A stretch of DNA of 64,000 nucleotides from Felis catus (taxonomy: Eukaryota): assembly GCF_018350175.1 (NCBI RefSeq), contig NC_058368.1:10292001-10356000 (forward strand), in the 5' to 3' direction. The position numbers were made by a program, and so were the translations under genes. Below are positions 852 to 60,929 of this stretch, piece by piece; the first letter of the stretch is position 1; every line of letters begins with the position of its first letter. The notes under the pieces are model-generated. The model ran no database searches and was not told where the DNA came from. It saw nothing but the letters and a program-made list of their open reading frames with translations.

Positions 852-1018
852 AACCATGGGCACAAAGAGGACATCCTCTGTGTGGCTCAATGCCCACCTT
901 TTCTTCTCATGACTTCCAGTTACGACGGAGAGGTCATCATTTGGAACGCCATCTCAGGCCACATTTACTGCAAGCTGAACACTCCCAGCCCCTCTCATGG
1001 TTGCAGAAGAAAGAAAAG
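852..1018 (+). pseudogene. WDR95: WDR95-like exon A (167 nt; probable +1 frameshift near 1001)
   Basis: ttctcag|NHGHKEDILCVAQCPPFLLMTSSYDGEVIIWNAISGHIYCKLNTPSPSHG..AAAG|gtaggt; ends phase 2 whereas exon B needs phase 1. Confidence 0.85.
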
Positions 1019-4000
1019 GTAGGTGAGGGGCAGGCTCCATGGCCGTTCCGCACAGGCCCCAGCAGGCTTGGACTCCTGGCTCATCGGCTAAAGAAATCTC
1101 AGTTCTGGACAGCATCCAGGTGAGAAGGGATTAGCCTGGTTTCAGGTTTAACCTGTCAAATGGAAATTCCCAAAGCTGGGAGGGAGCTTAAGAGTTTAGC
1201 TAGCTCAGTCCATATCCCAGGCACTCATCCATCAGAGCCTATCTCACAGCCTTGCCCACTACCTTTGGGAGCCTTGTCTCATCCACTGTCCACATGAAGG
1301 ATTGTCTCTCCTGCTGAGCCCCTTGGTCTCTGCTACAGTGCCAATTTTAGCCCTGTGTCTTTAATACCACTCTTTATGGGCTCCTTTTCCCAGCTATCAC
1401 TCCTGTCCCCCATCCCACCTCAGACGTCATCTCCCGATGTGTCACTCAGCTGTGTGCCCTCACCACACGCTTAATGCCACCCTCACCACACGCATTAGCC
1501 CTTCGGGTGCCCCCAGGGTCCCACGATCCCCCACACGCCCCCACATGGATCAGTCCTTACTACTTGTATATTTTATTGCAAAACTTTTCCCCACTCTCCC
1601 ACCCCATTCTCTCTAATTTCTCTACCCTGGTTCCATTTCTTCAAGACCCCCTCTCTCTGCTAATGTGATCATGGGCCCATTCATTCACATCTTCATTCAA
1701 AACATATTGATGAGCTCCTGCTATGTGCAGGTCCAGGGCTGGGTCCTGGGGCTGGTAACCACACCCCTCTCCCTCCAAGTCATGAACCATTTGAAAAACA
1801 CACTAATCTATCAGTTTCATGGCTGGCTGTGCTGGATGGAAAACCGTGGGAACCCACAGCCGCCAAAGGCTTCCTACCAGTCCTTGCCCTTCCTCCAGAG
1901 TCCAGGCTTATTTTTCCCAAGTCGCAGTCTGCAGCCACTCATCTGCCAACAGCCAGGGGACCCACTACCTCATACCCATGGAGCCCCAACAGGGGAGACA
2001 CAAGGCACTGGTGATTTTGCATAAAACTGGTAAGTTCTTGCATTTCCTGAAACCCAAGCAGCAAACCTTCAGAGAACCCTACCCTGCAATCCCTGCTTTA
2101 GGCATTTGATAACTTACTAGCCAAGGAAAAGTTCTAATGACTTACTTGATCAGAAAATATCTTTGAACCATTCCCATGGGCATAACCCTGAGGGAGATGC
2201 ATAGAAAAGATGAGAGAGAGATGCGAGGCCTGACCCTGCCTTCAGGGGGCTCACAGTCTAAATTCAGAGGCAAGATATGAATGCCCAGTAAGTAAGATAA
2301 TGGTAAAGCAACGTGATCAGCCTCTGGACTGCGAGAGAGACACTCCGGAAGGCAGCGGCTAGCAACGGAAACCACTAAGCACCATGAGATTAAAAAGAAA
2401 TTCTTACCTATAGACTTATTATCCAGTCTATTCCTACCCCCTTTACTATAACAGAAAAGATTCTTCTATGAAGCTCTTTCCCAGAGTGCCTAAAAGTTTT
2501 AAAAACCTTTGGGGAAAAAGTGATGGCATTTCCTTCTGAAAGATTATTTTCATTGCCATTAAAATGAAAATAAAGTCACTGGCCAAGAATGCGATGTTGA
2601 CCTTTTAGCCAGCAGCTCTAATTTAAAACCCTGTTTGCAGCAGCATTTATTGCTTCAAGTTATGTGACTGTTGGCTTTGAGAAACTCCTTTTCTGCTCCC
2701 CAAATGCAAAGCCAGCCATCGTTACCAATAATTCACATTTCTACATTGCAAAAAACGAGGTGAAAGTATGTGAAAGCTCCCCACCCTTCCAGGAAAGAGC
2801 AGTCCTGGCTCTTCTGGAAGGTCAAAGAGCCCAGTGGTCTTTTTCACATGGGATTGGTTAAGAGGTCATCATCTTATTTGGAAAACTGTCTGGACAATTC
2901 TTCTGAAGTCATTCTTAGTAGAGAGGGGAGCTGAGAGAGAGAGAGGCAATTGAGCAGGCAAAGCCAAATGAACTGAAAACACATCCTTTCTGCTGACTTT
3001 CCAACATTTTAGCTTCGTTCTTCCTTATATTCGGGATCGTTACATCTTCCTTCACAACAAAGAGAAAGAATTTGAGAGTGAAAGAGAGAGGCAGATTTCA
3101 ACCAGGCTAAAATCCAGGAAAGCAGTGAGCTCACTGGGAGACTAAGGCTTTTTCTCTCTGCTCCTCCGCTTCCCTTTCCTCCCCCTCCCTCCCCTCTGCC
3201 TCCTTTCCTCCTCCTCTTTGTTTATTGTGGTAAAACACACACACACCAAAACTTAAAGTTGGGTGGTATTAAACACAATCACGTGGCTGCGCACCATCAC
3301 CACTTCCTGTCCGCAGAACCTTTCATCATATCCAACCGAAACTGTCACCCCTAAACACTAACTCCCTATTCTCCCCTCCCCGCATCCCCTGCAACCACCA
3401 TGATACTTTCTATTTTTACGATTTTGACTACCATAGGTCCTTCGTGTAAGTGGAATCATACGGTATGTGTCTTTTTTGTGACTGCCTTATTTGGCTTAAT
3501 GTAATGTCCTCAAGTTTCACCCTGTTGCAGCATATCACAGAATTTCCTTCCTTTTTAAGGCTGAATAATATTCCATTGTGGGTGTACCACAGTCTGCTTA
3601 TCCCTTCTCCCATTAGTAGCCGCTTGGGTTGCTTCTGCATTTTAGCCACTGTGAATAGCGTTGCCGTGAGCATGGGTGTGCCGGTATCCCTCCAAGACCC
3701 TGCTTTTCAGTTCTTTTGGGTACACGTCCAGAAGTAGAATTACTGGATCGTGTGGCAGTTTTATTTTAGATTTTTTGAGGAACCTCTGTACTGTTTTCCA
3801 CAGTGGTTCTGTCATTCTCCATGGCCACCGACAGTGCACAGGTTTCCAAGTTCTCCACGTTCTCACCAACCCTTGTTATTTCATTTGTTTGTTTGTTTGT
3901 TTGTCTTAATAGCCATCTTAATGGGTATGAGGGGGTATCTCATTATGATTTTGATTTGCATTGTCTTAAAGATCAGTGATGTTGAGCATCTTTTCATGTG

Positions 4001-4199
4001 CATGTCAGCCACTTGTATATCTTTATTGGAAAAACATCTGTTCAAGTCCTTTGCCCATTTTTGAATCAGGTTGTTTGGGGTTTTTTTCTTGTTGTTGCTG
4101 AGTTTTAGAAGTTCTCTATATATTCTGGATATGAATCCCTTACCAGATATGTGATTTGCAAATATTTTCTCTCATTCTTTTTTAAAAAAAAAAAAAATT

Positions 4200-4436
4200 G
4201 GGGGGCGCCTGGGTGGCGCAGTCGGTTAAGCGTCTGACTTCAGCCAGGTCACGATCTCGCGGTCCGTGAGTTCGAGCCCCGTGTCGGGCTCTGGGCTGAT
4301 GGCTCAGAGCCTGGAGCCTGTTTCCGATTCTGTGTCTCCCTCTCTCTCTGCCCCTCCCCCATTCATGCTCTCTCTCTGTCCCAAAAAATAAATAAACGTT
4401 GAAAAAAAATTAAAAAAAAAATAAAAATAAAAAATA
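4200..4436 (+). mobile_element. Feline CanSINE (SINEC_Fc type)
   Basis: GGGGCGCCTGGGTGGCGCAGTCGGTTAAGCG head, (CT)n tract, AATAAA and A tail. Confidence 0.95.
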
Positions 4437-4649
4437 ATTTTTTTTTAACGTTTATTTATTTTTGAGACAGAGAGAGACAGAGCATGAACGGGGGAGGGGC
4501 AGAGAGAGAGGGAGACACAGAACTGGAAGCAGGCTCCAGGCTCTGAGCCATCAGCCCAGAGCCCGACACGGGGCTCGAACTCACGGACTGTGAGATCGTG
4601 ACCTGGGCTGAAGTCGGACGCTTAACCGACTGAGCCACCCAGGAGCCCC
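4437..4649 (-). mobile_element. Feline CanSINE
   Basis: Reverse-complement SINE; 16-bp TSD TATTTTCTCTCATTCT at 4163-4178 and 4650-4665. Confidence 0.95.
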
Positions 4650-5819
4650 TATTTTCTCTCATTCTATAGGTTGCCCTTTTACCCTGGGTAGTGTCTTCTG
4701 ATGTACATTTTTCAAAATTTTCACAAAGTCCAAATTGTCTATTTTTAATTTTGTCCCTGTGCCTTTAGTGTCATAGCCCAGAAATCATTGCCACATTCAA
4801 CGTCATGAAATTTTTGGCCTGTGTTTTCTTCCAAGAGTTTTTCTCGTTTAGGTTTTACGTTTAGTCCTCTGATCTATTTTGAGTTAATTTTTGTATATGG
4901 CGTTAGATAAGGGTCCAACTTCATCCATTTGCATGTGGATATTCCAGTTTCCCCACACCATTTGTTGAAAAGACTCTCTTTTCCCCATTGAACAATCTGG
5001 GCACCCTTGTCAAATATCATTTGACCATAAACGTCAGGGTTCATTTTGGGGATCTTTATTCTATTCCATTCATCTACATGTCTGTCTTTATACCAGTGCC
5101 ACACTGTTTTGATTCCTGTGGTTTTACAATAAATGTTAAAATCAAAAAGTGTGAGTCTTTCAATTTTGCTCTTTTTTTTTTCAAGATTAGAAAAATCTTG
5201 AAAAAATTTTGGCTATCCGGGGTCCTTGAGATCCCATACGAATTTTAGGATAGGTATTCTATTTCTTTAAAATCATCACTGGGATTTTGATAGAGATTGC
5301 ATTGAGTCTGTAGATCACTTTGGGTAGTATTCACAATATTAAGTCTGCCAATCCACGAACATGGATATGTTTCCATTTATTTAGGTTATCAATTTCTTTC
5401 ATAACATAAATAAATGTTTTGAATTTATTTGTCGTTTTCGTTGTATAAGTCTTTCATTTCCTTAGTTAATTCCTAAGTGTTTTATTCTTTTTTAATCTAC
5501 TGGGGTTGTTTTTGCAATTTCCTTTTCAGAGTGTTTCTTGTCTGTGTATAGAAATGCACAGATTTTTGTGTGTTGACTTTGTATCCTGCTATTACGCTGA
5601 ATTCATTTATTAGTTCTTAGATACTAAGGCTTTTTAACTAGGAAAACAATATAATAATATTTTCTTGTTTGTAAATAATGATATTTGTCTATTATAACAA
5701 TATAACATTTCATAAATATAATAACTTAAATAGTATCTACTATTTAATAATAGAATTATAATTAATATAACAATATAAAAATATTATATAAATAATATAT
5801 TTAATCCTGTATGTATTTT

Positions 5820-5935
5820 CCTGAGTGCTTTTAATATTTTACCTCATTTAGCATTCACATTAACCCTAAGAGATAGGTGCTATTGTACCCGTTTTCACAG
5901 ATGAGGAAACTGAGGCCAGAGAGTTCAGTAACAAT
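5820..5935. mobile_element. MIR fragment
   Basis: Core CCCGTTTTCACAGATGAGGAAACTGAGGC. Confidence 0.7.
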
Positions 5936-6454
5936 GATTATGAAAGCTACCATTTGTTGAGCATCTCTGTGCCATGAACTGTAGGTTCATTGTCCCCTTT
6001 CAGCTATCTCTGCAAGGTCATGTAGCGCAATTCACATAGTGTCTCACTTACTCCTGGCCAAACTCTATGAAATAGGAAGTATTGTCTCCATATCACAGAT
6101 GAAGAAGATTGAGGTTTAGGGAAGTGAAATGCTCCCTGAGGAAAGTAGGAAAGTGCCATGCAGACCCATTTCTTGGGACTGCAGGCCCTCTGCAGGATGA
6201 ATGTGGGCAAAGTGAAGGGACTTTATCTTTGTTGCATATCCCCCTCTTTTACCTGCCCCCCATCTTGCCCCCCCCCCTTGTGTCAATAATCCCAAGGACG
6301 TGATAAACTGAGAGTAAGGTAACACTTAGCCTAATCACTGTAGGTATATCCCAGGCATTGGGTACGGGCAAGAGCCATACCGCCATGTGGGTGGACCCTC
6401 CATCCTGCTTCTAAGAATCCTCAGCCTTCCAAAGACAAGTACAAAATCCAATAT

Positions 6455-6675
6455 CAAGGGCATGGGCTTTGGATGTGAACACATCTGGGTTTGAATCTCA
6501 GCCCTTCTATGATTAACTTGTGTGCCTTAGGCAATGTAATTCTTTCTAAAACAGTCTCACCACCTGCCAAATCAGAAACATAATGTCTACCTAAGATTGT
6601 TGTGATGATTAAAGTACAGGAATGTTGAGAACATGCCTAGAACATGCCTGGCACATAGAAAGTGTCCACTAAATA
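6455..6675. mobile_element. MIR fragment
   Basis: CTGGGTTTGAATCTCAGC..TGTGCCTTAGGCAA..GTTGTGATGATTAAA..CCTGGCACATAG. Confidence 0.65.
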
Positions 6676-7550
6676 GATAATCTTAATTAGAATCATTTTC
6701 TGCTTGAGGGCATGGCCTGAGTCTATCATGTCCACTGTGGTGAGCTCAGAGGCCAAAATAAGTATTGCTGGATGATTAACAGCCTGGTTCACGGGTATCC
6801 CCATGGTAGTGAGACAGCACCCCTTGTATTTAACTTCAGCACCAGCCCCATTATTTATATAGTCCCTTATTTACATGAGACCATTCATGGCACCTTCAGT
6901 CTGGGCCACGTACCCCGATGCCCACAGACTCAAGGAGAAAAACGTAAAGAGAGCTCCTTGCTCACAACCTCAAGTAGCAACGCTCTTTGTGGTTCTCACA
7001 GGTTTCATCTAAGTTTGCAGGATTTTTATTCAACAGCAAATATTTGAGTTCTATGTAGTAAGCATGGTGAGAGGATTTACAGATAAGTGGCTTTAAAAAA
7101 AGACAGATGTGGCTCCTGTGTCGATGGTGCTTAAAGTATAGCAGGGGGAGTGGAAGACCAGGAGGAAGCAGGGAGGTGGACTTAGAACGTATCCCAACCC
7201 TTGGCTGTACAGAGAAGATAGAGTTTGATGACTTTTCCTAGACAGCCCTCTCTGCCCAGTGCCCGAGACATCTTTCAAGATTCCAGATTCAATGCTGCTT
7301 CCCCTCAGATGCCTTCTCTGACCTCTCCCTTCTCCATACACAACAAGTCCCGTCCTGCATGTGCCAGCAGCATCCTGTTCGTTCCTGGGAGTAGTTCTTT
7401 TGCCTCAGTGTGGCCCTCTGCCTCTCCTTCTATCCACTGCTCTCAGCACAACGTCGGGGCTGTACCAGAGATTTAACACATGTTCATCAAAAACAAGTGA
7501 ATGAAAGAATGGACATCTTTTTGGCCTTGAGCAAAGCTTTTGACTTTTCT

Positions 7551-7772
7551 TTTTTTTAAATTTTTTTTTCAACGTTTATTTATTTTTGGGACAGAGAGAG
7601 ACAGAGCATGAACGGGGGAGGGGCAGAGAGAGAGGGAGACACAGAATTGGAAACAGGCTCCAGGCTCTGAGCCATCAGCCCAGAGCCTGACGCGGGGCTC
7701 GAACTCCCGGACCGCGAGATCGTGACCTGGCTGAAGTCGGACGCTTAACCGACTGCGCCACCCAGGCACCCC
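7551..7772 (-). mobile_element. Feline CanSINE
   Basis: TSD AGCTTTTGACTTTTCT at 7535-7550 and 7773-7788. Confidence 0.95.
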
Positions 7773-8060
7773 AGCTTTTGACTTTTCTAAGTCTCCACTT
7801 TCTCTCTGACCATGGGACTAATAATCCAGTACCATAGGATTTCACATGGTTTTATATCTTGGTAAATGTAAGAGGTGACATAATGGTTAATTCATATTAT
7901 TTCAATCCAAGAATTTCTAGGGAGTGGGGACTTCTTGAGAAGCACCTGTAAAGTCCTGGGCAAAGCCTCCCAAATCCTTGTTTCTCTCCAAAAGTCCTAG
8001 GGTCCTGGGCGATGCCAGGGCCATCTGCCTTCACACCTGACTTTACCTGGGTTGGTTCTT

Positions 8061-8293
8061 TTTATTTAAAATTTTTTTTAATGTTTATTTATTTTTGACA
8101 GAGAGAGAGAGAGAGAGAGAGACAGAGCATGAGGGGGGAGGGGCAGAGAGAGAGGGAGACACAGAATCTGAAGCAGGCTCCAGGCTCTGAGCTGTCAGCA
8201 CAGAGCCCGATGCAGGGTTCAAACTCATGGACTGTGAGATCATGACCCGAGCTGAAGTCGGACGCTCAACAGACGGAGCCATCCAGGCGCCCC
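8061..8293 (-). mobile_element. Feline CanSINE
   Basis: TSD TACCTGGGTTGGTTCTT at 8044-8060 and 8294-8310. Confidence 0.95.
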
Positions 8294-8461
8294 TACCTGG
8301 GTTGGTTCTTAACCAGCGAGGACGCCAGCATGTCCACGCCCCTATGTGCACAGCTCCTGCTTCAGGCCCATGGTGGGGGAGGGGGTGTGCTGGGGGGCAG
8401 AGCTACAGAAGAAGGTGGGAGAAAGGGCTGTGAGCACACCCAAACTCTCCCTGGTCACCAG

Positions 8462-8557
8462 GCCCAGATCGGAGCGTTTCCTGTCTTGCCCTCTTGAAGA
8501 CTTGAGCAGCCAAGTTTGAATCAGTGGCCACTTCCTTAATCACCAATGGGCCCCAAG
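8462..8557 (+). pseudogene. WDR95: WDR95-like exon B (96 nt) with in-frame TGA at 8503-8505
   Basis: ccag|(G)PDRSVSCLALLKT*AAKFESVATSLITNGPQ(G)|gtaaga. Confidence 0.8.
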
Positions 8558-9917
8558 GTAAGAATAGCTTCCCACAGGGGCTGTGCTGCTCTTTTCTAAT
8601 ATTTGGCCACTGCAGGCCTGGATCTGGAAAGGGAGGGTCCCTAAGCACTCACTACTCCCCTCCACAACCTCTGCTATCTCTCCTTCCAGACTCTCTGTCC
8701 TTGGAGCCCAGGCTGACTAAGGCCCTTACCCTACCTGCTCTGGCCCCGGTCCTGCCAGCCAGGGAGGTGATCACCCAGGGAGTGAGGGCCTGACTCTCAC
8801 TTCCTCCAAATCAAGTTTCCTCGCCTCAGCTGCCCACTCAGAGGCCTCTACAAGTGAAGTGGGTCACCGAGGACATCATGTAGTCAGGCTAAATGAACAC
8901 CAAGCACAGCCTTTTAAGGGGAGAGCCACGAGTAAGCACAGGCAGCCTGACGGAAGAGCCTTAAGAAGAACAAAGCATCCTAAGTGTAGATCAGCTATGT
9001 ATCCTGCTCGTTTTAGGAGGAAGAAGCCAGGGCTCCCCTGAGAGCCTGAGGATGAGCTTCTGAATCCAGATCTGCCACAAGTGGGCCACAGTCCTGCTCC
9101 AAAGCTCCAGGATTTTAATTAAAATTGTGAGATGAAAAACAGCCAGCCACCTGTGTTGCAGAGGGGAAGCTCAAGTTGTGTGTACGGATCCCGGGGTGGT
9201 CATTCGCGTTCTCGTTAGGTAGTAAGGGAGGCTATGTCCTCTGGACTTTGGACCCATGGCCCCAGCCCCAAAGATGCAGATGCCCTTGGATGCTCCTCTC
9301 CACCCTCCACACTGAGGCATCCATGGCTTCTGCTTTGCCTGGTGGGATCACAGAGCCCCGTTGGCCCTAAGAGGAGGAAACTTCAACCTCGTAATTTAGG
9401 GAACTCCCAAGAGCAAGTGATATGCATGGGGTCCCCACTTCACAAAGGCTTGCTACACGAACACCCATGTGTAAAACACATTCAAGAATTGTGGCTGATA
9501 GGCGACAAAGACCCCCCTGGCCCAAGAATCCCTTTGACTAAGCAGGCCCCACAGTGTGTTTAAAATAAGTACTTACACACACATGCATGTGCGTGCACAC
9601 ACACGCGCGCGCGCACACACACACTGATTATTGCCACAGCTCTAACTTCCAGACCTTTCCTCCATAGCCGAATCTGCCCTTCTCATCAGGAAAGTTGCCT
9701 AGATTAGTGGAGACAGAAAAGGCCACGGAGCCCTTTGATTCAAAACCCACGAAGAGGACCCTCTTCCCCTATATTCACGGATAATTCTAGCCACGGGTAT
9801 AAGAAGAGGCCCCTGCTGTCACGAGGCTGCAGTGCCTGGCAGCAAAGTCTCAGGAGACTCGGAGGCACAGGCGAAGTGCACACCCCCGGTGGTCTTCCTG
9901 CTCTCCTCTCCTCACAG

Positions 9918-9983
9918 GTTCTGTCACCTTCTGGAGGCTCTTCGGTGTTCGGTGGGGCCCGTCCCATTGCAAACCTCACTCCT
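9918..9983 (+). pseudogene. WDR95: WDR95-like exon C with 7-bp duplication and dead donor
   Basis: ctcacag|(G)SVTFWRLF[TTCGGTG x2]GGARPIANLTP|ataagt. Confidence 0.78.
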
Positions 9984-10039
9984 ATAAGTTGGACAGTCGA
10001 TTGGAAATAACTTCCACGCTTGGGGTTTGTTTTTTTTTT

Positions 10040-10262
10040 TCCTTAAAAAAATTTTTTTTAATGTTTATTTATTTTTGAGAGAGATAGAGAGACAGAGTGC
10101 GAGCAGGGGAGGGGCAGAGAGAGAGGGAGACACCGAATCCGAAGCAGGCTCCAGGTTCTGAGCTGTCAGCACAGAGCCCGACTCGGGGCTCGAACTCACT
10201 TCTGTGAGATCGTGATCTGAGCTGAAGTCGGACGCTTAACTAGCTGAACCACCAGGCGCCCC
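10040..10262 (-). mobile_element. Feline CanSINE
   Basis: Poly-T, (GA)n tract and tRNA-derived head in reverse; short TGTTTTTTT flanks. Confidence 0.92.
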
Positions 10263-10457
10263 TGTTTTTTTCTTTATCGACACTAGCCTGACTGTGCAAC
10301 ACAGCGACTCTTCTGGGCTCCAAGTTTTTAGCTTGATTATCTATATAGCATACCCTATCTTGCTGAAAGATTAACACAGGCACAGTGATGAGTTCTTACT
10401 GCAAATGGGATGCAGCATTCCACTTGCCATTGTCTGACAAGTCAGCTTTATCGGCAA

Positions 10458-10483
10458 TGGGCCCCGTGTGCATCTGTGATGGG

Positions 10484-10522
<39 letters not shown>

Positions 10523-10566
10523 ATGGACCCAATGTGTGTGTGTGTGATGGACCATGTGCATGTGTT
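10458..10566. repeat. (TG)n microsatellite within a degenerate GATGGRCC-(TG)n repeat
   Basis: About four ATGGRCC motifs separated by TG runs; longest run ~16 TG. Confidence 0.85.
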
Positions 10567-10572
10567 TTTCAG

Positions 10573-10714
10573 TCCAGAGACAAAGCACAGGTCAGCAGCA
10601 TCACAGTGACAGCAAGAGATGCCCTCGCCTACGTGGCCGACCAGGAAGGCTTTGTGCACGTCTATGACATCAAAGAATATGGCCTGCAGGGACCCGAGCT
10701 GCAGTCCCCCAAGA
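10573..10714 (+). pseudogene. WDR95: WDR95-like exon D (142 nt)
   Basis: ttttcag|SRDKAQVSSITVTARDALAYVADQEGFVHVYDIKEYGLQGPELQSPK|gtagac (weak donor). Confidence 0.82.
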
Positions 10715-10869
10715 GTAGACAATAAACACTTCATGTTAAATACCATAATGAGCACAGCTTCAGTTTTAACTTAATATTCTGGTTGGTAAGATGAAATTGT
10801 ACCAGTGAGGATGGGGGGTAGGGGGAGGCGGTCTATAAAACCCTTTAAGAATGGGTTTAGAAACAAATA

Positions 10870-11470
10870 TTTTTAGCTTGGCAAGGATACAGGAAAATGG
10901 GCACTCCTATATGCTCTTGGCTAGGAAGCAAATTGGTGTATGCTATCGGAAGGGTAAGTTGACTCTACATATCGAAAGCTTCAAACCGGCAATCCTACTT
11001 CTAAGCATTTGGCCATAAGAAATAATAAGACATGCGCACAAAGATTTAATTATCAGGTGAATCAATACATTGTTTGTAAGGGAGAAAGAGAATAATTAGA
11101 AGCAACCTAGATATCCAACATAAGGAGAATTGATTCAGTACATGATGGTATGACAAATACACTGGAATACCATCCAATCTTTGAAGAGCAGTGCTGTCAA
11201 TGAAGGTGTATTCACAGGAAAAATATTCTCGGTAAATTATTAAATGAAAACATTCAGATCGCAAGACAACATTAAAGTATGAATCTTAAAAATAAAAAGA
11301 GTATGATTCTTTGTTAAAATGAAGAAATACGTAGATTGAAAGTCTGGAAAGACACACACCGAGGCTTTCACAAATGTTATCTCTTGGTAGATGAGATTAT
11401 AAATGTGCATTATTTTTTATTTTTGGAAATCTGTATTCCAGAAATTCTGTCTTATGGAAACATTGCTTTG
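10870..11470 (+). mobile_element. Degenerate old L1M fragment
   Basis: GGCAAGGATACAGGAAAATGGGCACTC..GCAATCCTACTTCT.. resembles L1 ORF2 end/3'UTR; A-rich. Confidence 0.5.
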
Positions 11471-11670
11471 GTGGTACAAAAATGTTTAAAAATTTAAAAC
11501 CCTCTCATACAATTATAAAAATGCTCAAGATTAGCAAAAAATCAGACAGCACAAAAGAATGGAAAATGAAAAGCACTAGTTGCTACTCTGACCTCTTTTA
11601 CCACCTGACCTGCCATTTCTGCCTCCTGGGAACACTGTGAATGAATCTTAATTTTCTTTCAGAAGGTTTC

Positions 11671-11674
<4 letters not shown>

Positions 11675-11720
<46 letters not shown>
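11675..11720. repeat. (TA)n microsatellite
   Basis: About 23 uninterrupted TA units. Confidence 0.95.
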
Positions 11721-11723
<3 letters not shown>

Positions 11724-12367
11724 GGGCACCTATATCCCACTACATAATTTCCAGAACTTGTTTTTTACCTTTGCATCCCTTAGACAACTTTCCAAAAAAG
11801 CACATGTAACTCCATTCAGCATATTTAGAATCTAACATATTTAAATGGCTATATAGAATCCCAATAAACACGTTTCTGGAAGGCCAATATAGAGGTGAAT
11901 ACAGACTTCCATTTAGTCACCTTTTCCTGTTCCCCACAGAAGTTTAAACGCTACAGCAAGAGAAATTGGAATTTAGAAGTAAGAGCCACCTGCCTAGCCT
12001 CCGTCTTCTATTCCAAGTACTGGGTGCATAGCACTTGCCAGCCTACTTTACCAATCACTTTTGATTACTTGTCTACTCCTGCGTGCTTTCCAAACCCTAA
12101 GCACTGAGGGAAACCATAGCATAAGCAGCTTGCAAGGGACCCATTTTATATGTCTTTGGACCTGGCACGGGGTCTTTCACGTAGCTAGGTGCTCAATAAA
12201 CACTTAGCAGTTAGTGTAGCAAAACCAATGACTGCCACACGGGTACCTCTCCCTTGCTGGACACTCATCCAGATCTGACCCCATCCCATGAAACTGCTGT
12301 ATGGCATCTAACATTGTGGTGATTAATTCTCCCACTGTACTCAGGTGTGTTCTTTCTTTTGATTTAG

Positions 12368-12407
12368 ATGTGACCTTCCGCACGGCCCATGTCAGTGTTG
12401 TGACGTT
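12368..12407 (+). pseudogene. WDR95: WDR95-like exon E (40 nt)
   Basis: tttag|(N)VTFRTAHVSVVT|gtgagt; phases 1/2 bridge exons D and F exactly. Confidence 0.75.
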
Positions 12408-12699
12408 GTGAGTACCGTCTATTTTAGAGTTCAAGAACTTGTAAGAGTTAAAATACTTCCCATTGCTTTGATCAAATCAACCCTCTCAAAAGGCCTCTGA
12501 ATTAGTCAAAATAGGAAAACGGGATTGTAATCCCGAATCCTACTGTTGGGGAAAACAAGATGTATGTACCGCTTGCACAGGACTAAAGGAAGCCATTGGA
12601 AGTCTTCATTTTTTCTTGTAAATGGATCATCGTCTTCCGTGAATTGGTCTGGTATTTTCCTTTAAGTTTAGACACTTAGTAAACTTAATCTTTTTATTA

Positions 12700-12910
12700 C
12701 TTTTTAAATTTAAATTTATTTTTTGAGAGAGAGAGAGAGAGAGCACAGGTGAGAGGGGCAGAGGGAGAAAGAGAGAATCTTAAGCAGTCTTCACGCTTAG
12801 CACAGAGCCTGATACAGAGTTTGATCCCACGAACCTGACTTGATTGTGACTTGATCGGAAATCAAGAGTCAGACACTCAACCTACTGAGCCACCCAGGTG
12901 CAGGTGTCCC
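12700..12910 (-). mobile_element. Older CanSINE
   Basis: Diverged (GA)n tract and ...CTGAGCCACCCAGG head in reverse. Confidence 0.8.
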
Positions 12911-13251
12911 CCCACCTTTTTTTCTTACTGAATTGAAAGGATTCAGTGCTAAGGGCACAACCTGAACTCTGGTGGGGCTGTTCTTTACAATATCTTGATC
13001 TTTCCCCCAGACCCATCACCTGTAAGATGGTTTTCGGCGTATTTTGTTTGATATCTTGGGACTGGCGCTGGAGAACTTGGAGGGTGTGATGTGGTAGGAG
13101 GTAGGGAGAGAATGGTACCAAGGATAATTCAGAAGATTGACCTGCCTTCTACATTCCAACCATCATTAATGGAGCATTGACATATTGATTCAATGTCCCT
13201 TTCATGCTGGAACAGCTTTGGAGCATCTTTCCTCCCTTTTTATCTCATTAG

Positions 13252-13337
13252 TTTAGAGCTGATAGAAGAACAGTTTCTGCTCTCATCCTCCCTTGACTGC
13301 ACCATGTGCCTATGGAGCAGAGATGGGGCATACATAG
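13252..13337 (+). pseudogene. WDR95: WDR95-like exon F (86 nt)
   Basis: cattag|LELIEEQFLLSSSLDCTMCLWSRDGAYI(G)|gtatgg. Confidence 0.85.
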
Positions 13338-13405
13338 GTATGGAATATCCCACCTGGCTGCCTCCTCAGTCTCAGTTCAGGGCTACATATCTTCTCTAAG
13401 GCCAA

Positions 13406-13768
13406 GTGTATTAGTCAGCTCAAGCTGCCTAACAAATACTGTTGACTGGGTGACTGAAACAATAGGCATTTCTTTTCCTACATCAGAATGGTTCTGGAGA
13501 CTGGAAGTCTGAGATCAGGGTGCTGACATGGTCGGGTTCTGGAGAGAACTCTCTTCCTGGCTTACAGAGGGCCATCTTATTGTATCCTTGCGTGGCAGAG
13601 GGATGGCTCTGGTGTCTCTTCTTATCAGATCGCTGTCAGATCAGGGTCCAACCCTCATGAGCTCGTTTTAACCTTAACTGCTTCCATACAGGCTTTATCT
13701 CCAAATATAGTTACACTGGGGGTGGGGCTTTAACATGTGAGTTTTGCAGGAAACAAAATTCAGTCTAT
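13406..13768 (-). mobile_element. MaLR LTR (MLT1 family)
   Basis: TGTATTAGTC..GGTTCTGGAGACTGGAAGTCTGAGATCAGGGTG..AATTCAGTCTATA. Confidence 0.8.
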
Positions 13769-14285
13769 ACCTTAACATCAGCCTACGTTCACAAAAATTG
13801 GCAAAATTAAAGACATTTCAACTTAGAGAGCTCAACTAGACTCAGTGCAGTGAGTTTGGTAAGGAAATGTGTTATCATAGGGTCATATCTTGGTTGGAAC
13901 AATTCAGAACACAGGGAAGGGCCTAGCCTGAGTGGGCTAAAGTAATGAGATTCACCTGACTCACTATGTAGAGACTCTGTACCTATTTCAGCAGGTCAGC
14001 TTGTCTCCCTAGCTGATATTCCTTGAAGCAAGTGCTAAAACTAGAATTTATCCTGTCCGTCCTTAGTTTAGTACTGAGTAACTTATGCACCCATGTGATG
14101 CATTCTGTAGGAGGCATTCCAGGCTCAAGTCTCCAGAGCCAACTGCCCTGGAGTTGTTTCTTACAGAACCACAGAAGCAGAACTAAATTTGATTAGGTTG
14201 ACCTAACAACCTTAGCAGTAAGCTTTGCTCTGATTAGAAGATAGGTTAGCTTCTGTACTATGCTTATTTGTCTCTATTCCTCCAG

Positions 14286-14470
14286 GAACCTTTGGGCAGC
14301 ATAACCCCTGGGCTATTTTCATTCCTGCCCCCGGGAGCCACCCTAGAGTGCCCTATGAAATTTTGACAGATCCCCAGAGCATGCCTGCTCCCCCAGTGGT
14401 GGAAGGGGATGTTGCTGCCATGCACAAAGGAAAGGAGGAGCGAGACAATGTGGTGGAGGAAAAGGCTAAG
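14286..14470 (+). pseudogene. WDR95: WDR95-like exon G (185 nt)
   Basis: ctccag|(G)TFGQHNPWAIFIPAPGSHPRVPYEILTDPQSMPAPPVVEGD...EEKAK|gttggt. Confidence 0.8.
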
Positions 14471-16426
14471 GTTGGTCCTGGTCCATCCAATTCACCTGCA
14501 TTTTCGGATTTTGTGGCTTCCAGGCAGATCAGCATGGAATACAAACTGCAGACTGAAAGAGTCAGGGGATGACCCAGAGAACAAGTAAACATAGAGATTT
14601 AAAGTGTGTCCCGAGATCGTGCTTCCGACCAGGTAGGGTGGGGGAGGGGGTGGTTGTGGGTGCATCTGTGGGAATGATTGAAGCTCATCCCCCTAGCGTC
14701 GCTTGACTTTGTCCTCCTTTGACTGATAAAAAGGCAATTATTCATGGCCTTGGAAGGTAAGGAGACCCAGGATCATGCTCAGCCCAACTGTCACATCTGA
14801 GAAGGACAGACACTGCAAATTCAGCCCACGGCACACACTCTCTATTAAGAAACACACACAGAAGCTTGGCTTCCAAGTGAAAGGAAGAAATGAATGAGTT
14901 AGTGCCCCAGTCTATGAAAGTCAAAACTGGAGAAAGAGATTTTAAGAGGGCCCTGGTAGATGCAGTCTTGATTTAGAGCTTAGTGAAAATATATGGATTT
15001 CCAAGAAATGCTTGCCCTTTAATAAATTGAAAAGAAGGTCATTTCATGAGCTATTGCTCACTGGTTATGTTACAACTCAAAGCAGAACACCTGCTCTGCC
15101 AGCAAAATAATGTGTCTCGGGTTTTTCCTTGGCAGCCTCCTAGAATACTGATCACACGGTATGACCTCGTCGCTGACTTTTGTGTAGAGCCCCAAACACG
15201 TTCAAAATAGGAAATAAAGGGACTGGGCAGGCATAGATCAAGAAAACCTTCTGTCTTGTCAGAGGCCTCTCACATTTCCACGATCCTGTTCTCATAAGCA
15301 TTCCCAAGGTAACAAAGAGGTGCGGTGGTAGCCCTCAGGAGATCAGAATGTGTCTACCCAGCACCATTGGTCTATTTAGAAATACAATAATTTCAGTGCG
15401 CGTTTGATACGGAGCAAATAAATGAGTTCATTAATTTTGATGGGCCCGCCATTTGAAAACAAAAGCCCAGAGGGCGGAGGGAAGAGAGGAAGGCCAGAGG
15501 AAGGGAAAAATGCTGATGTGCTCAGAAGCCAGGCGAGTGCTTGGCTGGAAGGCGAAATCCCACTGCAAGTGGAATGTAGGAACAGGAAGGGAGCGGAGGG
15601 AGGGCAAGGCAGGAGGAAGAGGGAGAAGAGGAGGAAAAGGAAGAGGCAGGGTGGGGAGGAAGCCGCTCGGTTCCAGAAATCAAAACAGATCATTGACATG
15701 ATGTTGGTTCTCTGAGGGTGAAAGAGAGTGGGGCAGTCGGTTCCAGGATGGATTTTGGTCTTCGCTGGTAGACCATCAGGCGCATCTGTGTTTATTTTTC
15801 TGTCCAATTTGACTGCTGGTACCCCCAGGAAACAGTCTGCAAATTCTTTCCCAGAGAAATAGGGCAAAAGGAAAGAACCTGAGCCCTTATATAGTGTATT
15901 TGGACCATTCGATGGGACCCCAAACTGTGAAATTGCAGAATAAAGTGTTTATGAGGTAGGGTCGCCGGAGTTCTGCTGTTAAATTCACCTTCATTAGTTG
16001 CGTGACCTCCAGCAATCACTTCCATTAATCTGTGAAATGAGAGGCGGGATTAGCTGATCTGTGAGTTTTATTCCAGCTCTAAAAATGTTACGTTTCTCTG
16101 AATGTCTGTTTTGCAAAACCGAATGTGTTGATTGGATTCTGGGTGTCAGTAGCGATTCTTCCCGAATACCAGCAGATCAAACACAACCACAACTGAAGTA
16201 AGTTGATGGAATGCAGAAAATCATTCACCTGGAAAATATCACATAGGAGTTGGTGGTTTCAAATTTGAGTAAAAGCTCGGGGGAAAATGCTCTTGTTTTG
16301 TAACAGATTCAGCCAGCCTGTATCTTGTTCCAACACAGAAAAATGCATGTAACTGACAAGCTATCTCTGTTCCCTGTCACCATTATGATCCTGGGTTCCC
16401 ATTCCCACAAGTGTTCCTTCTCCCAG

Positions 16427-16524
16427 CCTGAAAAAACCCCTAACCCTTGCTCTCCAGAAGACTCCATCCTTGAAGTTGAACTGAAACAAGACATAAATCA
16501 ATGGTATGCATTTTGCAACGGCAG
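16427..16524 (+). pseudogene. WDR95: Probable WDR95-like exon H (98 nt)
   Basis: ttctcccag|PEKTPNPCSPEDSILEVELKQDINQWYAFCNG|gtgagc; phase 0 matches exon G; low-complexity region so homology is not verifiable by eye. Confidence 0.55.
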
Positions 16525-20535: not shown

Positions 20536-23500
20536 TGAAAGGCAGGGCGGACGGAGGGAGGCAGGAGCATGAGGCAAGGCCCAGGGCAAGAGAGAAAGGT
20601 GGAGGAGTTCTGGGAGTGTGAGAAGCTCCGTGTGCTGGCACAGAGTCTGGGGGGGAGGTGACCGTGGCCAGGACTTGACCACGGAAGGAAGGATTTTGAG
20701 GGGCGGAAGTAGAAGGCTCTCCAAGGTGTTTCAAATTCAGCAGGAGGGAGAAGAGCTGGTGATAGAGGGTCAAATCGAAGAGAGGAGCACGCGCATGTTT
20801 TTGCAAATGGAAGCGGTGCTGTGATGGGAAGGACCACCGTGCCGAAGGGGGGGCTTCCGGTTAAGCGGGAGGCAGCAGGTGCCTGAGGGATCCGCACGCT
20901 CATCTGGTCCTTCTCCTGCAAGCTGCCGCTGGAGCGGAACCAGCCTTCCCGGAGAACGCCTGAGCTGGGGTGGCCCGGCATCTACCAGACCCTCCGGTGC
21001 CACCGGGTCGCCTGCATGTCGGCTGTCGGGGAGAAGCCAGACTTGCCTATTATCGGCTCGGATTTGTTGAATTTAAATTGTCCTGCACAGGAAAAAGGAG
21101 GAAGCGAAGCCGCCCAGAAGGAGCACTGATCACCCAGCAGTTTCCGTGTCTGGGCTCTGAAGAGACCAGGGTGCTCTTTCCTTGGCAAATTCTTCTTCCC
21201 CAGTTAATCCAGTTGACTGACTCAGAGTAACCTTTGCCCGACGGGGCCCAAGAAGAACAAAACAAGAAATGATGTCTGCCAATGTGGGCTTCCTCCCAAA
21301 ACAATTAGAGCTTGAAGTGAAGCCCACGGGTCAGATTCGAGGTTTTTCTTCCTCGGAAGCCTCGATTTCACTGAGCGCAGACGGCACAGAGCCGATGGGC
21401 TGCAGTTCCGTCACGACCCAGGTGTCCCCGACACCTCCTGCCCCCAGGTGGGGTGGGACCATGGAGAGGAAAGGGACGCTGTTGGTAAAAAAAATAACTA
21501 ACAATTTTGAAAGTCTGTTTTGTGCCAGGCAAGCCTCAGTTAAGACCTTGGACGTATTATCTCCTTTATTCCTAATAACACCCCTATGGAGAGGTACTGT
21601 GATTATACCATTTCACCAACAAGGAAAGTGAGGTTCTGGGAGTTTTAAATGACCGGCTGATGGTTATCAGTTAAGTAAATGGCGCAAGAAAATTCAGAGG
21701 CCACAAGTTCTAACCAACAACGCAGACTCTCAGGGTAGAGAAAAGCAAGTTTCAGGAATAATATCAGAAGGCCAATTGCCGGGTCCTTTCCAAGCGTGGC
21801 TCTAAAGCAGCCATTTGAAAGCTCTCAGCCCCCTCAGAGATCCCAACAGTGGTAGAGAAAGAATAATGATGCAACTACCAGTTACAGAGCACTTGCTATG
21901 CTGATCTCTTCACAGGCATCATTTAACCTTGAAGCAGCCTAGGGAAGGTGCATCCCTCCTTGTTAGATGAGCAAACTGGTCCTCAGAGAGATTACGTTTT
22001 TTTTTTTTTTTTTCCTAAAGGCACCCAAGCCAAAATATCCCAACTTCAAACCTTAGTTTGGCCCCAGTCACTGGGCTATAAATCTCCACCCTTAATCCAA
22101 AGCCATCATTTTGCAAATGAGGACAGTAAGGGACAGAGTCCGTGACTGCAAACACAGGAAGTCTCTTGACCCTCCAGTCCGGTACTTGCCAGTACTGCTC
22201 ACCTGCTCTTTGGTCAGCCCATGACCTTCTTCACACTGGGGCAAGCGGGGCGCTGTCCTGGCCGTGCCCGTCCCCGTAGGGCAAGGGGTCTGCGGGACGA
22301 AGGAGAAGCGTCCCCCTTCTGGACCATGCTGCAGGTCCTGGGCCCTGGAGATGTCGTGCCCAGATGGCCCTGAGTCCGTGTCCAGGGCCATGAATGCAGT
22401 GTCTTCGGGGATTCATCCATCCGTGGAGAGACCACACAGTCCCAGCCCAGCAAGGGGGCAAAGGGGTGGGTGTTTGCTGGGGTGCAGACACACATTGGGT
22501 GTGCTGGCTGGGGGTGCCATCCACGCCCCTCATGGTGCAGGAGGAAGCTAAGGGTGGAGGGAGAAAGCGGGTGAGCTGCGGGCTGGGAGCCAGGGGCTGC
22601 CCTCCCTGCATTGTCACATAACCACGGAGCCACGAGGACTCCAAAATTTTACGCCCGTACTGGCCTTCTGGGGCCTTACGCACCTCCAAGGTGGGAGGAT
22701 AGAACATTTGTCACCTGCTGAACATTTTATTGGACACTTTGTTAACTTGATATTTAACTTTTCAAGACTGAGTCTCCATCTGTACTCTTGCCCTGGACTC
22801 CCAAGTAGAGGTGAGCCTGTGCCCACTTCTCTTTCACTTCTCCGACTCCTCCACTCCCAGACCTCAAGGCCCCCGGGGCCTTGTTCCCTATTCCACCTTG
22901 GCCAAGAATGCCGGATCCTCACTGGGCACGTTTCAGGAGCCCCGTCCCATCCCCCACCATGACTGGCATTTCACACGTGTCTATGTCCAGCCACTCCCGG
23001 GAAGAGGCTGCTCTTTCCGGTTAAGTTGCATGATCGTTCCCTGGGATTTTTCTGACCCAACCACACAGGAACCTCCAGCTGGTGCCGGTGGAGAACCCTC
23101 ACCTCAGTGAAGACTCCTGGCTACCCGTTAGGCAATCCAAACTTAGGCAAAACGAGAAATTTATTGGTTTGTAGAACCATGGGAAACATTATGACCAAGA
23201 ACTTAAAAGCCCCATCAGGGCTAACGTCCCATCCTTGTCCCTGTGATATTGTCTGTTCTCTCTCTGTCTGTCTCTCTCTGTCTGCAGACCAGTTCTGTCC
23301 ACGGTGCAGGAAACACGGCCACAACAGTCTCTGGGTTTAATTTGTAGCCTGAACTCCACAGAGAGACTGACGTCAGGTTCTCTTGGGGTTCTAAGTCTCA
23401 CATCCCTAGCAAAGGGACTTGCTGACATATCTTGAGTCAGCACTTACCTTGGCTCAGACCGAGTGAGGGCCGCAGCCTGGTTCCTTTAAAAATGGCTGGT

Positions 23501-24947: not shown

Positions 24948-25021
24948 TAGCCGAGACGACTGGTTTTAGCCGAGATGACTGGTTTTAGCCAAGACGACTG
25001 ATTTTAGCCGAGACGACTGGT
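24948..25021. repeat. 19-bp tandem repeat, ~3.9 copies
   Basis: TAGCCGAGACGACTGGTTT repeated with 1-2 substitutions per copy. Confidence 0.9.
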
Positions 25022-27734: not shown

Positions 27735-29455
27735 TTCTCCTCATGTCCCTCAGCTCTCCTCACGCCCCCCTCAGGTCCCCTCGTGCCCCCCTCAGGTCCC
27801 CCCACACCCCCCTCAGCTCTCCTCACATCGCCCTCAGCTCTCCTCACGTCCCCCTCCGCTCTCCTCACGCCCCCCTCAGGTCCCCTCACGCCCCCTTCAG
27901 CTCTCTTTCCTCCCCATCAGCTTTCGTCACGCCCCCCTCAGCTCTCCTCACGCCCCCCTCTGCTCTCCTCACGCCCCCCTCAGGTCCCCCCACATCCCCC
28001 TCAGCTCTCCTCACGTCCCTCAGCTCTCCTCACGCCCCCCTCAGGTCCCCCCACACCCCCCTCAGCTCTCCTCACGCCCCCCTCAGCTCTCCTCATGTCC
28101 CCCTCAGCTCTCCTCACATCCCTCAGCTCTCCTCAGGCCCCCCTCAGCTCTCCTCAGGTCCCTCAGCTCTCCTCACGCACCCCTCAGCTCTCCTCACATC
28201 GCCCTCAGCTCTCCTCACGTCCCCCTCAGCTCTCCTCATGCCCCCCTCAGGTCCCCTCACGCCCCCTTCAGCTCTCTTTCGTCCCCATCAGCTTTCGTCA
28301 CGCCCCCTCAGCTCTCCTCACGTCCCCCTCAGCTCTCCTCACGCACCCCTCAGCTCTCCTCACGCCCCCCCTCTGCTCTCCTCACATCGCCCTCAGCTCT
28401 CCTCATGTCCCCCTCAGCTCTCCTCACACCCCCCTCAGGTCCCCCCACACCCCCTTCGGGTCTCCTCAGGTCCCTCAGCTCTCCTTTCGTCCCCCTCAGC
28501 TCTCCTCACGCCCCCCTCAGCTCTCCTCACCTTCCCCTCAGCTCTCCTCACACACCCCTCAGGTCCCCCCACACCCCTCTCAGCTCTCCTCACGCCCCCC
28601 TCAGCTCTCCTCACGCCCCCCTCAGCTCTCCTCACGCCCCCCTCAGGTCCCCCCACACCCCCCTCAGCTCTCCTCACGTCCCCCTCAGCTCTCCTCACGC
28701 CCCCCTCAGCTCTCCTCATGTCCCCCTCAGCTCTCCTCACACCCCCCTCAGGTCCCCCCACACCCCCCTCAGCTCTCCTCACGTCCCCCTCAGCTCTCCT
28801 TTCGTCCCCCTCAGCTCTCCTCACGCCCCCCTCAGCTCTCCTCACCTCCCCCTCAGCTCTCCTCACACACCCCTCAGGTCCCCCCACACCCCTCTCAGCT
28901 CTCCTCACGCCCCCCTCAGCTCTCCTCACGCCCCCCTCAGCTCTCCTCACGCCCCCCTCAGGTCCCCCCACACCCCCCTCAGCTCTCCTCACGTCCCCCT
29001 CAGCTCTCCTCACGCCCCCCTCAGCTCTCCTCATGTCCCCCTCAGCTCTCCTCACACCCCCCTCAGGTCCCCCCACACCCCCCTCAGCTCTCCTCACGCC
29101 CCCCTCAGCTCCCCCCAAACCCCCCTCAGGTCCCCCCACATCCCCCTCAGCTCTCCTCATGTCCCTCAGCTCTCCTCACGCCCCCCTCAGGTCCCCCCAC
29201 ACCCCCCTCAGCTCTCACGCCCCCCTCGGCTCTCCTCAGGCCCCCCTCAGCTCTCCTCACGCCCCCCTCAGCTCTCCTCACGTCCCCCTCAGCTCTCCTC
29301 ACACCCCCCTCAGGTCCCCCCACACCCCCCTCAGCTCTCCTCACGCCCCCCTCAGCTCCCCCCAAACCCTCCTCAGGTCCCCCCACATCCCCCTCAGGTC
29401 CCCCCACATCCCCCTCAGCTCTCCTCATGTCCCTCAGCTCTCCTCACGTCCCCCT
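27735..29455. repeat. Minisatellite/VNTR, 21-bp unit, ~80 copies
   Basis: Units CCCTCAGCTCTCCTCACGCCC and CCCTCAGGTCCCCCCACACCC, with occasional shorter variants; C-rich + strand. Confidence 0.97.
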
Positions 29456-30300
29456 CGAGCCCGGCCTCGTCCTGTGGGCTCCATTTTGAGGCATGGCACC
29501 CTTTTTCACTCTGACACCGAAGTCAGAGACCTGGGAGGCGGCCTGTCCCCGTCCCTGCCGTTCGTCGGGAGCGCACGGCACACGAGGGCCCAGAGGCGCT
29601 GAAGTGGCCCCGTGAGCGCGCAGAGATCTCAGGACAGGTGCTCCTTCCGGGGCAAAGTGCAAGGGCCAAGTCCGCAGAAGGGGATCCGTGAATCGCTCAG
29701 GTCGTTTGTGACGATTCCCAGCACGGCCTGCTTCCCTGTCGGCACCCCGGGCCGGCCTCTCTGTGTGGCAACCGGGGGACCGTCGCTGCCAGGTGGACCC
29801 CACAGGCCCCGGCCCGCCAGGCGCTGAAGAAGCCCCCTGGCCGCGGTCCTCCCTGCCGCGTCAGGGTGACGCATCCGCTCGGAGGTGCGGGGAGAGCCCA
29901 GGGAGGAGGTAGGAGCCGGCAGCCCCCGCGGGGCCGGGGGTGCCACACATCCTTCCATTCCTTCCGGAGCAGCAGCCCCTGTTTTAGGCAAAACATTTAT
30001 GTATAGCGTTGCTATAGAATGTCCAGAACCCTCAAACAACACTTAACATCGTTTAGAAAGGGTCGGGCTGCTTATGACAACCAGATGAAGTGATGAGGCG
30101 CGTCATCCTCCATCGGACGCTGGATCCAAACAACAGCCGCAAAGGACGTTTGGGGGACCGAGGTACCTGGTCGGGCTGTTGTGCGGAGGAGGGGTTCCTT
30201 GGGCGCGACAGTGGACTTGAGGGGTGGGAGGACGAGGTCCCCGTTCGGAGAAGGTATGGGCGGGAGAGGTGACTGTCGCTGTGACTGGTCAAGGGTTCAC
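29456..30300. other. Orphan CpG-rich segment
   Basis: High GC and many CpGs directly after the VNTR; no recognisable exon. Confidence 0.55.
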
Positions 30301-35186: not shown

Positions 35187-35405
35187 GGGGGCGCCTGGGT
35201 GGCTCAGTCGGTTGAGCATCCGACTTCAGCTCAGGTCACGATCTCACGGTTCGTGAGTTCGAGCCCCGCATCAGGCTCTGGGCTGATGGCTCGGAGCCTG
35301 GAGCCTGCTTCCGATTCTGTGTCTCCCTCTCTCTCTGCCCCTCCCCCATTCATGCTCTGTCTCTGTCTCAAAAATAAATAAACATTAAAAAAAAATTAAA
35401 AAAAA
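35187..35405 (+). mobile_element. Feline CanSINE
   Basis: TSD AGAACAGAAG at 35177-35186 and 35406-35415. Confidence 0.95.
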
Positions 35406-37106: not shown

Positions 37107-60228
<23,122 letters not shown>

Positions 60229-60442
60229 TCACTCGGACGGAAACGCGAACGGCCCGCCTGCCGGCGCCTCCGGCTTCCCGGGGACAGTGGCAGCACTCGG
60301 AGGGCTAAGCACGGGAGAAAGCGGCGCTCGGTCTCCGCGGGGCGCTCCTCAAGCTCGGGAGGACTGTCTCGATCTGCACCCGCTGCTCACCGGCGCGGCG
60401 CTCAACTACCGACCCAAAAGGGGAGGTCCCAATTCCTCAGCC

Positions 60443-60449
60443 TTATGTA
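60443..60449 (-). promoter_or_regulatory. TATA-like element (TACATAA); implies TSS near 60415
   Basis: AT-rich TATA variant between the proximal HSE and an ATG-free ~320-nt GC-rich leader. Confidence 0.55.
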
Positions 60450-60460
60450 TCGCACTGATC

Positions 60461-60475
60461 AGAACTTTCCAGAAT
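60461..60475. promoter_or_regulatory. Proximal heat shock element (HSF1 site)
   Basis: aGAAc-tTTCc-aGAAt: three perfect alternating nGAAn units just upstream of a TATA-like element. Confidence 0.88.
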
Positions 60476-60535
60476 CTGCGGCATTTACTCACCGGCGCCT
60501 CCACCGGCCCCTCCACGTGCCACTTCCGCTTCCTT

Positions 60536-60555
60536 CTTCTCGAGCCTTCTCGAAA
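60536..60555. promoter_or_regulatory. Distal heat shock element
   Basis: cTTCt-cGAGc-cTTCt-cGAAa: four alternating units, one mismatch. Confidence 0.8.
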
Positions 60556-60913
60556 GATTCTACCCAATGGGTGGCTGGTCCCTCTGGGGTCGGCCGCGGT
60601 TGCCATAGTGGCAGAAGAGCCGCTCCGGCGCTATTGGCTCACGCCGGCCAGACTGACCCACCTACGTCCCCGCCCGCCCTAGCCACAGCTCTTTGCTCTC
60701 CGAATAAAACGGACAATGAAGACTGACCCCCAAAATCGTAATCTTCACGGTTTACTAGTGGGTGATGGTGTGCGACCCCGAGGGGCTGAGAGCGGGGAAA
60801 CAAACCCCACTTCTGCGGAGACCCTAGACCCCTACACCCTGAGGAGGCCGACCAGCTGTCAACAGAGCATGTCGGGAACCGTAGTCCGGCCGGGAGCCGG
60901 CGTGCGCCTTGTA

Positions 60914-60929
60914 TGCTGGGATATGTAGT
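60914..60929 (-). promoter_or_regulatory. ZNF143/THAP11-type ACTACAnnTCCCAG motif
   Basis: Minus strand reads ACTACATATCCCAGCA. Confidence 0.7.

Follow-up and report, generated by a model that had tools for sequence, protein, structure and literature searches.

A 64,000-nucleotide stretch of the domestic cat genome (Felis catus, contig NC_058368.1, positions 10,292,001 to 10,356,000 of the forward strand; hereafter the window) carries the 3' third of an orthologue of mouse Wdr95, a WD40-repeat gene, as nine exons between 852 and 21129 on the plus strand. We read the locus as a disabled, intron-containing unitary pseudogene, with a probability of about 0.82, on the basis of five lesions in an otherwise collinear gene. 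The human pseudogene at this locus is already known; the felid one is apparently unreported. Titles and abstract openings in the literature searched, which leaves subscription journals outside its coverage, yielded no report of felid or recurrent WDR95 loss.

The WDR95 locus and its lesions

A search with the peptide of the first exon in the window (exon A) returned matches from mammals to fish, several of them named WD40 repeat domain 95, and the exon is 98% identical to a lynx model. The Mus pahari cluster includes mouse Wdr95 and RIKEN 4930434E21. A quick tree was built from 111 family members, the lynx model standing in for the window sequence; this model grouped with hyena, panda and mouse Wdr95 at a support of 100 in the Shimodaira-Hasegawa-like approximate likelihood ratio test (SH-aLRT). 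The group falls inside a vertebrate clade. A sister vertebrate clade holds monitor lizard, coelacanth, Xenopus and zebra shark, and WDR49-named invertebrate proteins lie in a distant clade of this tree, which included no named mammalian WDR49. Among 11 proteins compared with the window, mouse Wdr95 (NP_083716.2, XP_017176434.1, UniProt E9PUB4/D3Z7A8) scored best of the non-carnivorans, and its exons are collinear with those found here. Human WDR95P is the same gene beside the same neighbour, HSPH1 at 13q12.3 (PMC7890067), disabled in place with its introns kept. PMC2864566 carries it as 4930434E21 in a supplementary list of human unitary pseudogenes, known since 2010.

Exons A to H were located through alignments of translated candidate regions with homologues from carnivorans. 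A tBLASTn search with panda residues 723-1074 matched the exons in collinear sequence, at E values from 2e-28 to 7e-4, except for exon E, which is too short for E<1 and was positioned by local alignment. Panda residues 1-722 had no match in the window at E 0.01, the window covering residues 723-1074 of about 1074. Sequence near 9650 was weighed as a further exon, and the idea was dropped. The exon-intron structure is kept, with nine collinear exons across 20 kb and an AG acceptor at each of exons A to H.

Exon A, 852..1018 (+): panda residues 723-777, WD40 repeat (PF00400, E 2e-4); AG acceptor, GT donor; 167 nucleotides, one above the frame requirement
Exon B, 8462..8557 (+): panda 779-809, phase 1-1
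Exon C, 9918..9983 (+): panda 811-829, 7 nucleotides in excess
Exon D, 10573..10714 (+): panda 830-876, open; donor weak (4/9 consensus positions)
Exon E, 12368..12407 (+): panda 878-889; near-invariant Trp881 and Arg882 replaced, likewise in lynx and tiger
Exon F, 13252..13337 (+): panda 891-918, open
Exon G, 14286..14470 (+): panda 920-980, open; near-invariant Trp935 replaced
Exon H, 16427..16524 (+): panda 981-1006, orthologous acceptor at 16427, end in phase 2
Exon I, 20922..21129 (+): terminal coding exon, panda 1007-1074, stop at 21127-21129

Four of the disabling lesions fall in exons A to C and the fifth at the acceptor of exon I, where the nearest AG lies one base downstream and leaves the frame shifted.

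Lesion 1, 1001..1002 (+): one extra T, a +1 frameshift near the end of exon A
Lesion 2, 8503..8505 (+): TGA replacing near-invariant Arg792, exon B
Lesion 3, 9941..9954 (+): perfect tandem 7-nucleotide duplication (TTCGGTG), a frameshift in exon C
Lesion 4, 9984..9985 (+): exon C donor AT in place of GT (ATAAGT)
Lesion 5, 20920..20921 (+): exon I acceptor required by phase reads AA
First stop in the message spliced as it stands, 8517..8519 (+): in the shifted frame after lesion 1, 74 codons past the start of exon A

When GT/AG splice paths between exons A and D were enumerated, the open ones ran only via weak, cryptic sites. In those shown (the top three per path type) exon B or C is lost or misread, and none retains both exons in the ancestral frame.

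Sequencing reads were examined over the region of lesions 2 to 4. Between 8340 and 10015 all 176 sampled words were present in 14 of 24 runs; 12 of these 14, from 6 studies, are not marked as a possible source, and two are. Four runs were assembled at the locus, by a procedure whose contigs drop rare alleles. The independent run X11 gave one contig identical to the window over 8340-9586 (depth 27), TGA included. Run X19 gave a 182-nucleotide contig, also identical to the window, that spans the stop and the exon B donor unspliced, and RNA run X20 gave a 155-nucleotide intronic contig; both may be derived from DNA, with no transcription shown. A poly-A run of unknown tissue (X24) held one read from the locus in 1,934 million letters. 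No splice joint of the gene was present in the RNA runs examined (X19, X20 and X24). A small share of words in organism B was considered as a spliced message of exons B and C, and rejected.

The first-pass annotation of this DNA had proposed a unitary pseudogene orthologous to Wdr95, next to HSPH1. That proposal is upheld by the SH-aLRT grouping, the synteny with HSPH1 (which lies on the minus strand, with an exon peptide at E 6e-51), the retained introns, the lesions and the failure of the splice paths to bypass them. Its eight WD40 exons with intact acceptors were recovered in the same order, all with AG, and its four lesions in exons A to C can be read directly in the window; lesion 5 was not among them. 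The range it gave, 852..16524, is right for the eight exons and ends too early, the ninth sitting at 20922-21129. In raw reads, the stop was borne out in run X11.

Probable timing of the felid loss and apparent erosion in other lineages

Species other than the cat are represented here by predicted protein models. Every felid protein retrieved (lynx, two tiger, lion and a cat fragment) is either broken or partial. In the lynx model the shifted peptide of lesion 1 is still present where exon A ends, the sequence continues past the exon C donor (ISWT), and the beginning of exon I is skipped; this model has Gln at the position of the window's stop and is without the 7-nucleotide duplication. Both tiger models cut exon A just ahead of the insertion, omit exon C and keep Arg at 792. 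We take the lynx and tiger models at this locus to be annotation work-arounds and not real proteins. In contrast, models of spotted hyena (1020 residues), meerkat (804), panda (1074) and ferret (1082) are continuous through all lesion sites.

Because the lynx and tiger models echo the defects of exons A and C while hyena, meerkat, panda and ferret are intact, we infer that the gene was inactivated in the common ancestry of the felids, once cats had separated from hyenas and mongooses and before the lynx and tiger lineages diverged. This would fall between roughly 35 and 11 million years ago. The exon B stop would be a later, recent change, since lynx has Gln and tiger Arg at that site, and so would the exon C duplication, which the lynx model does not have. 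Dating of the loss by amino-acid counts was rejected as too noisy. At the Arg792 site, further models have Gln (fox, sheep, takin and chinchilla, as in lynx) or Trp (spotted hyena and yak), and the codon at 8503-8505 is likely a CpG hotspot.

Substitutions follow the same division. Of 16 changes unique to the window relative to hyena and meerkat, 9 are common to lynx and tiger. Deeply conserved columns are changed at 13/97 in the window, against 3/99 in hyena and 2/99 in meerkat (13/97 versus 5/198 pooled, Fisher p 5e-4), and the changed columns in the window include two near-invariant tryptophans. Upstream of the window the corresponding counts are 20/127 in lynx, 25/106 in tiger and 14/74 in lion, partly a model artefact, against 2/133 in hyena and 1/133 in meerkat. 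In the lynx (P0001), tiger (P0113) and lion (P0282) models alike, the sequence breaks at an exon that begins near panda residue 609, a hint of a further shared felid lesion upstream of the window.

The felid loss is separate from the human one. A single loss common to both is excluded by intact models on both sides of the tree, in spotted hyena, meerkat, panda and ferret near cats and in treeshrew and mouse near humans. The first-pass annotation had thought the two losses possibly independent, which is now supported, and had called them convergent. Independent events are supported; a convergence linked to a trait is not, and the fertile mouse knockout described below points to plain dispensability.

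An erosion score over 164 columns conserved in non-mammals was computed for 65 mammalian models. Change is low (1-6%) in panda, mustelids, hyena, meerkat, treeshrew, moles, marsupials and monotremes, and 4-7% in most rodents, with chinchilla and porcupine at 10%. Felids reach 16-23%. Raised values were also found in whales (10-19%), camel (17%, on 42 columns), bovids (8-13%), rhino (12%), pinnipeds (8.5-12%), canids (8-9.5%), horse (9%) and deer (6-10%). A low-quality flag is attached to several models from the dog family, deer, whales, horse and sea lion.

Out-of-frame peptides were sought in 57 models over 9 exons. Two toothed whales follow the shifted frame of exon B, pangolin that of exon F and goat that of exon A (0/300 shuffles in each case). 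Most rows for exon C merely mirror the window's own duplication, and those for shrew exon H and platypus exon D were set aside as probably chance. By eye, and below the score cut, two foxes and the raccoon dog show a shifted end of exon F, a site intact in the window. Taken together, the models point to possible additional erosion among canids, pinnipeds, whales, ruminants and horses, which we regard as leads for recurrent loss drawn from annotated models and distinct from DNA-level calls.

The goat model (P0167) reads through the same exon C donor as lynx (ISWST; window 9984-9985), which suggests that caprines acquired this GT>AT change independently; a CpG across the junction could be the cause. 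Striped hyena models (P0116-P0121) comprise the N-terminal 282-356 residues only, against 1020 in spotted hyena, which may reflect a gap in the assembly or another loss. Among the matches listed (98; 120 of 1124; 120 of 166), none carried the name of a primate, bat or neognath bird, and the birds are palaeognaths only. None of 155 proteins checked contained X; stop-corrected models may therefore be missing, and the absence of these names is only a hint.

The intact protein and the proposed cause of its loss

The AlphaFold model of the panda protein (predicted local distance difference test score 75.6, predicted template modelling score 0.49) has helices at 109-196 and two propellers, the second at about 579-925. 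This is the layout of CFAP337, WDR49 and WDR64, an N-terminal helical, EF-hand-like region and two WD40 propellers; the wider family, with FAP337, EFCAB8 and Drosophila WDY, likewise has the helical region and two propellers. Foldseek ranked bovine sperm WDR64 first (E 2e-42) and a Tetrahymena chain associated with the nexin-dynein regulatory complex second, which we take to be CFAP337. VIA-align placed this Tetrahymena chain (8tid_Z) first, with Z 36.0, a root-mean-square deviation of 12.2 and 615 residues aligned, less than 2 Z above generic propellers. WDR64 was also the best sequence match in PDB when the mouse protein was the query, and is 19% identical to WDR95 in a structural alignment. 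WDR95 nevertheless forms a distinct, distant clade, likened to this family by sequence and predicted structure.

On the panda model, truncation after exon A would remove about three of the second propeller's seven blades. Lesion 1 shifts the frame at the end of exon A into a stop in exon B, and the resulting message would probably be degraded by nonsense-mediated decay, which is established for stops far upstream of the last junction; any residual protein would lack those blades.

CFAP337 binds CCDC96 and contacts dynein d (PMC10504270), FAP337 depends on FAP57, with zebrafish WDR95 tabulated as its homologue (PMC6761771), and WDR64 has been proposed as the sperm paralogue of WDR49 (PMC11779644). 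An axonemal seat for WDR95 is suggested by family likeness. Mouse Wdr95 is intact, unlike the broken cat copy, and belongs to a set of genes expressed predominantly in testis or epididymis; males carrying a 25-kb deletion were fertile with normal histology (litter 10.2, p 0.11; PMC13253961). Wdr95 was not found in the supplements of PMC10195156, PMC7555810 and PMC3580494, one of the identifiers used being an unverified Ensembl id.

We consider it an even bet that the gene was lost through redundancy with WDR64 followed by drift, a cause favoured because the mouse knockout males are fertile. Intact WDR95 would then be a testis-enriched paralogue of CFAP337, WDR49 and WDR64, seated on the axonemal CCDC96/113 coiled coil. 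Were WDR64 to fill that seat in mammalian sperm, WDR95 would be nearly dispensable and liable to repeated decay by drift.

Several points weigh against the account given here. The cat data are confined to this window, and the other species are known as predicted proteins, not DNA. The X11 contig ends short of exon C, which no other contig reached, and the reads examined cover lesions 2 to 4 and not lesions 1 and 5. Change is raised without known lesions in warthog (9/99; 7% on the 164-column score) and shrews (6.5-8%), which keeps the erosion measure from separating intact and broken genes cleanly. The mouse knockout deleted only part of Wdr95. Finally, neither the WDR95 name nor three of its accessions appears in the accessible mouse sperm proteome tables that list WDR64 with 15 peptides (PMC11779644), whose search database may lack them. 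The possible link to cilia or testis made by the first-pass annotation is supported at the level of the family and by mouse expression.

Instead of drift alone, a trait common to the affected lineages or a new role for the locus might lie behind the losses, such as relaxed sperm competition or conversion into a non-coding host of intronic PIWI-interacting RNA (piRNA) clusters. We judge this unlikely. Erosion does fall on at least three carnivoran branches (felids, canids and pinnipeds, at the values above) interleaved with intact lineages at 3.7-5.5%, and the introns of mouse Wdr95 contain piRNA clusters (PMC13253961). However, the biology of the eroded lineages varies widely, mouse knockout males are fertile, the poly-A library held a single read, and no literature was found connecting pachytene piRNA with 5-qG3. 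In its broadest form, which we hold to be equally doubtful, WDR95 would be an old third occupant of the CFAP337 seat, lost or eroded independently in at least eight mammalian lineages (felids, canids, pinnipeds, whales, ruminants, camels, perissodactyls, pangolins, primates and perhaps bats) and in neognath birds, tracking a sperm or mating trait or conversion into a piRNA host. If true, this would be a well-replicated natural experiment on axoneme simplification, overlooked because gene-loss screens use the human gene set.

A useful product might remain, either a shortened N-terminal protein (helical region and first propeller) or a form made by exon skipping. Residues 1-722 are beyond the window, striped hyena models stop within the N-terminal part, exons D, F and G are open, and some open splice paths run via weak cryptic sites. 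Yet lynx, tiger and lion are eroded upstream as well, if partly through model artefact, and the open paths shown drop or misread exon B or C; we regard a residual product as highly improbable. Assembly errors or alleles of one animal are a slighter prospect again. Two lesions are absent from the lynx model and exon C is without read-contig coverage, but the stop recurs in an independent run and in a second short contig, 14 runs hold every sampled word, and lynx or tiger models show echoes of the three remaining lesions. One ancient loss common to cats and humans, to which the pseudogenes at the same locus might point, has a negligible chance given the full-length, conserved proteins between them in spotted hyena, panda, ferret and mouse (1099 residues, with complementary DNAs as well as the knockout).

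Repeated independent erosion across mammals or birds, as proposed here for WDR95, is described for COA1, GBA3, ATP1A4-type sperm genes and, in neognath birds, STK33; those losses were mapped at the DNA level, whereas recurrence for WDR95 comes from protein models. The present results mark Wdr95 out as a gene eroded more than once, which screens built on the human gene set would overlook because the human copy is itself dead. Mouse-referenced tables of the Tool to infer Orthologs from Genome Alignments (TOGA) may already hold loss calls for it. As the mouse knockout is fertile, the lesson is likely a modest one, of a redundant sperm paralogue drifting out. The losses would matter more if they tracked a trait, and are otherwise a fairly ordinary repeated loss of a dispensable gene.

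Neighbouring features of the window

The syntenic neighbour lies tail-to-tail with the pseudogene.

HSPH1 (HSP105), 37800..60096 (-): start codon near 60096, lower end approximate

The HSPH1 exon peptide equals human HSP105 without mismatch over the aligned exon, and a CpG island lies at the start of the gene (59001-61000). Two homologue models bear the names TEX26/C13orf26, which hints that TEX26 is adjacent to WDR95. Between the pseudogene and HSPH1 are a 19-nucleotide tandem repeat of 3.9 copies (24948-25021) and a C-rich 21-nucleotide minisatellite of 82 copies with strong strand skew (27747-29456). The sole Rfam match, a weak tRNA hit at 35193-35277, is presumably the head of a tRNA-derived carnivore short interspersed element (SINE). 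Within the intron between exons A and B, at about 3250-5600, L1-like sequence is broken, by eye, by two opposed SINE-like copies.

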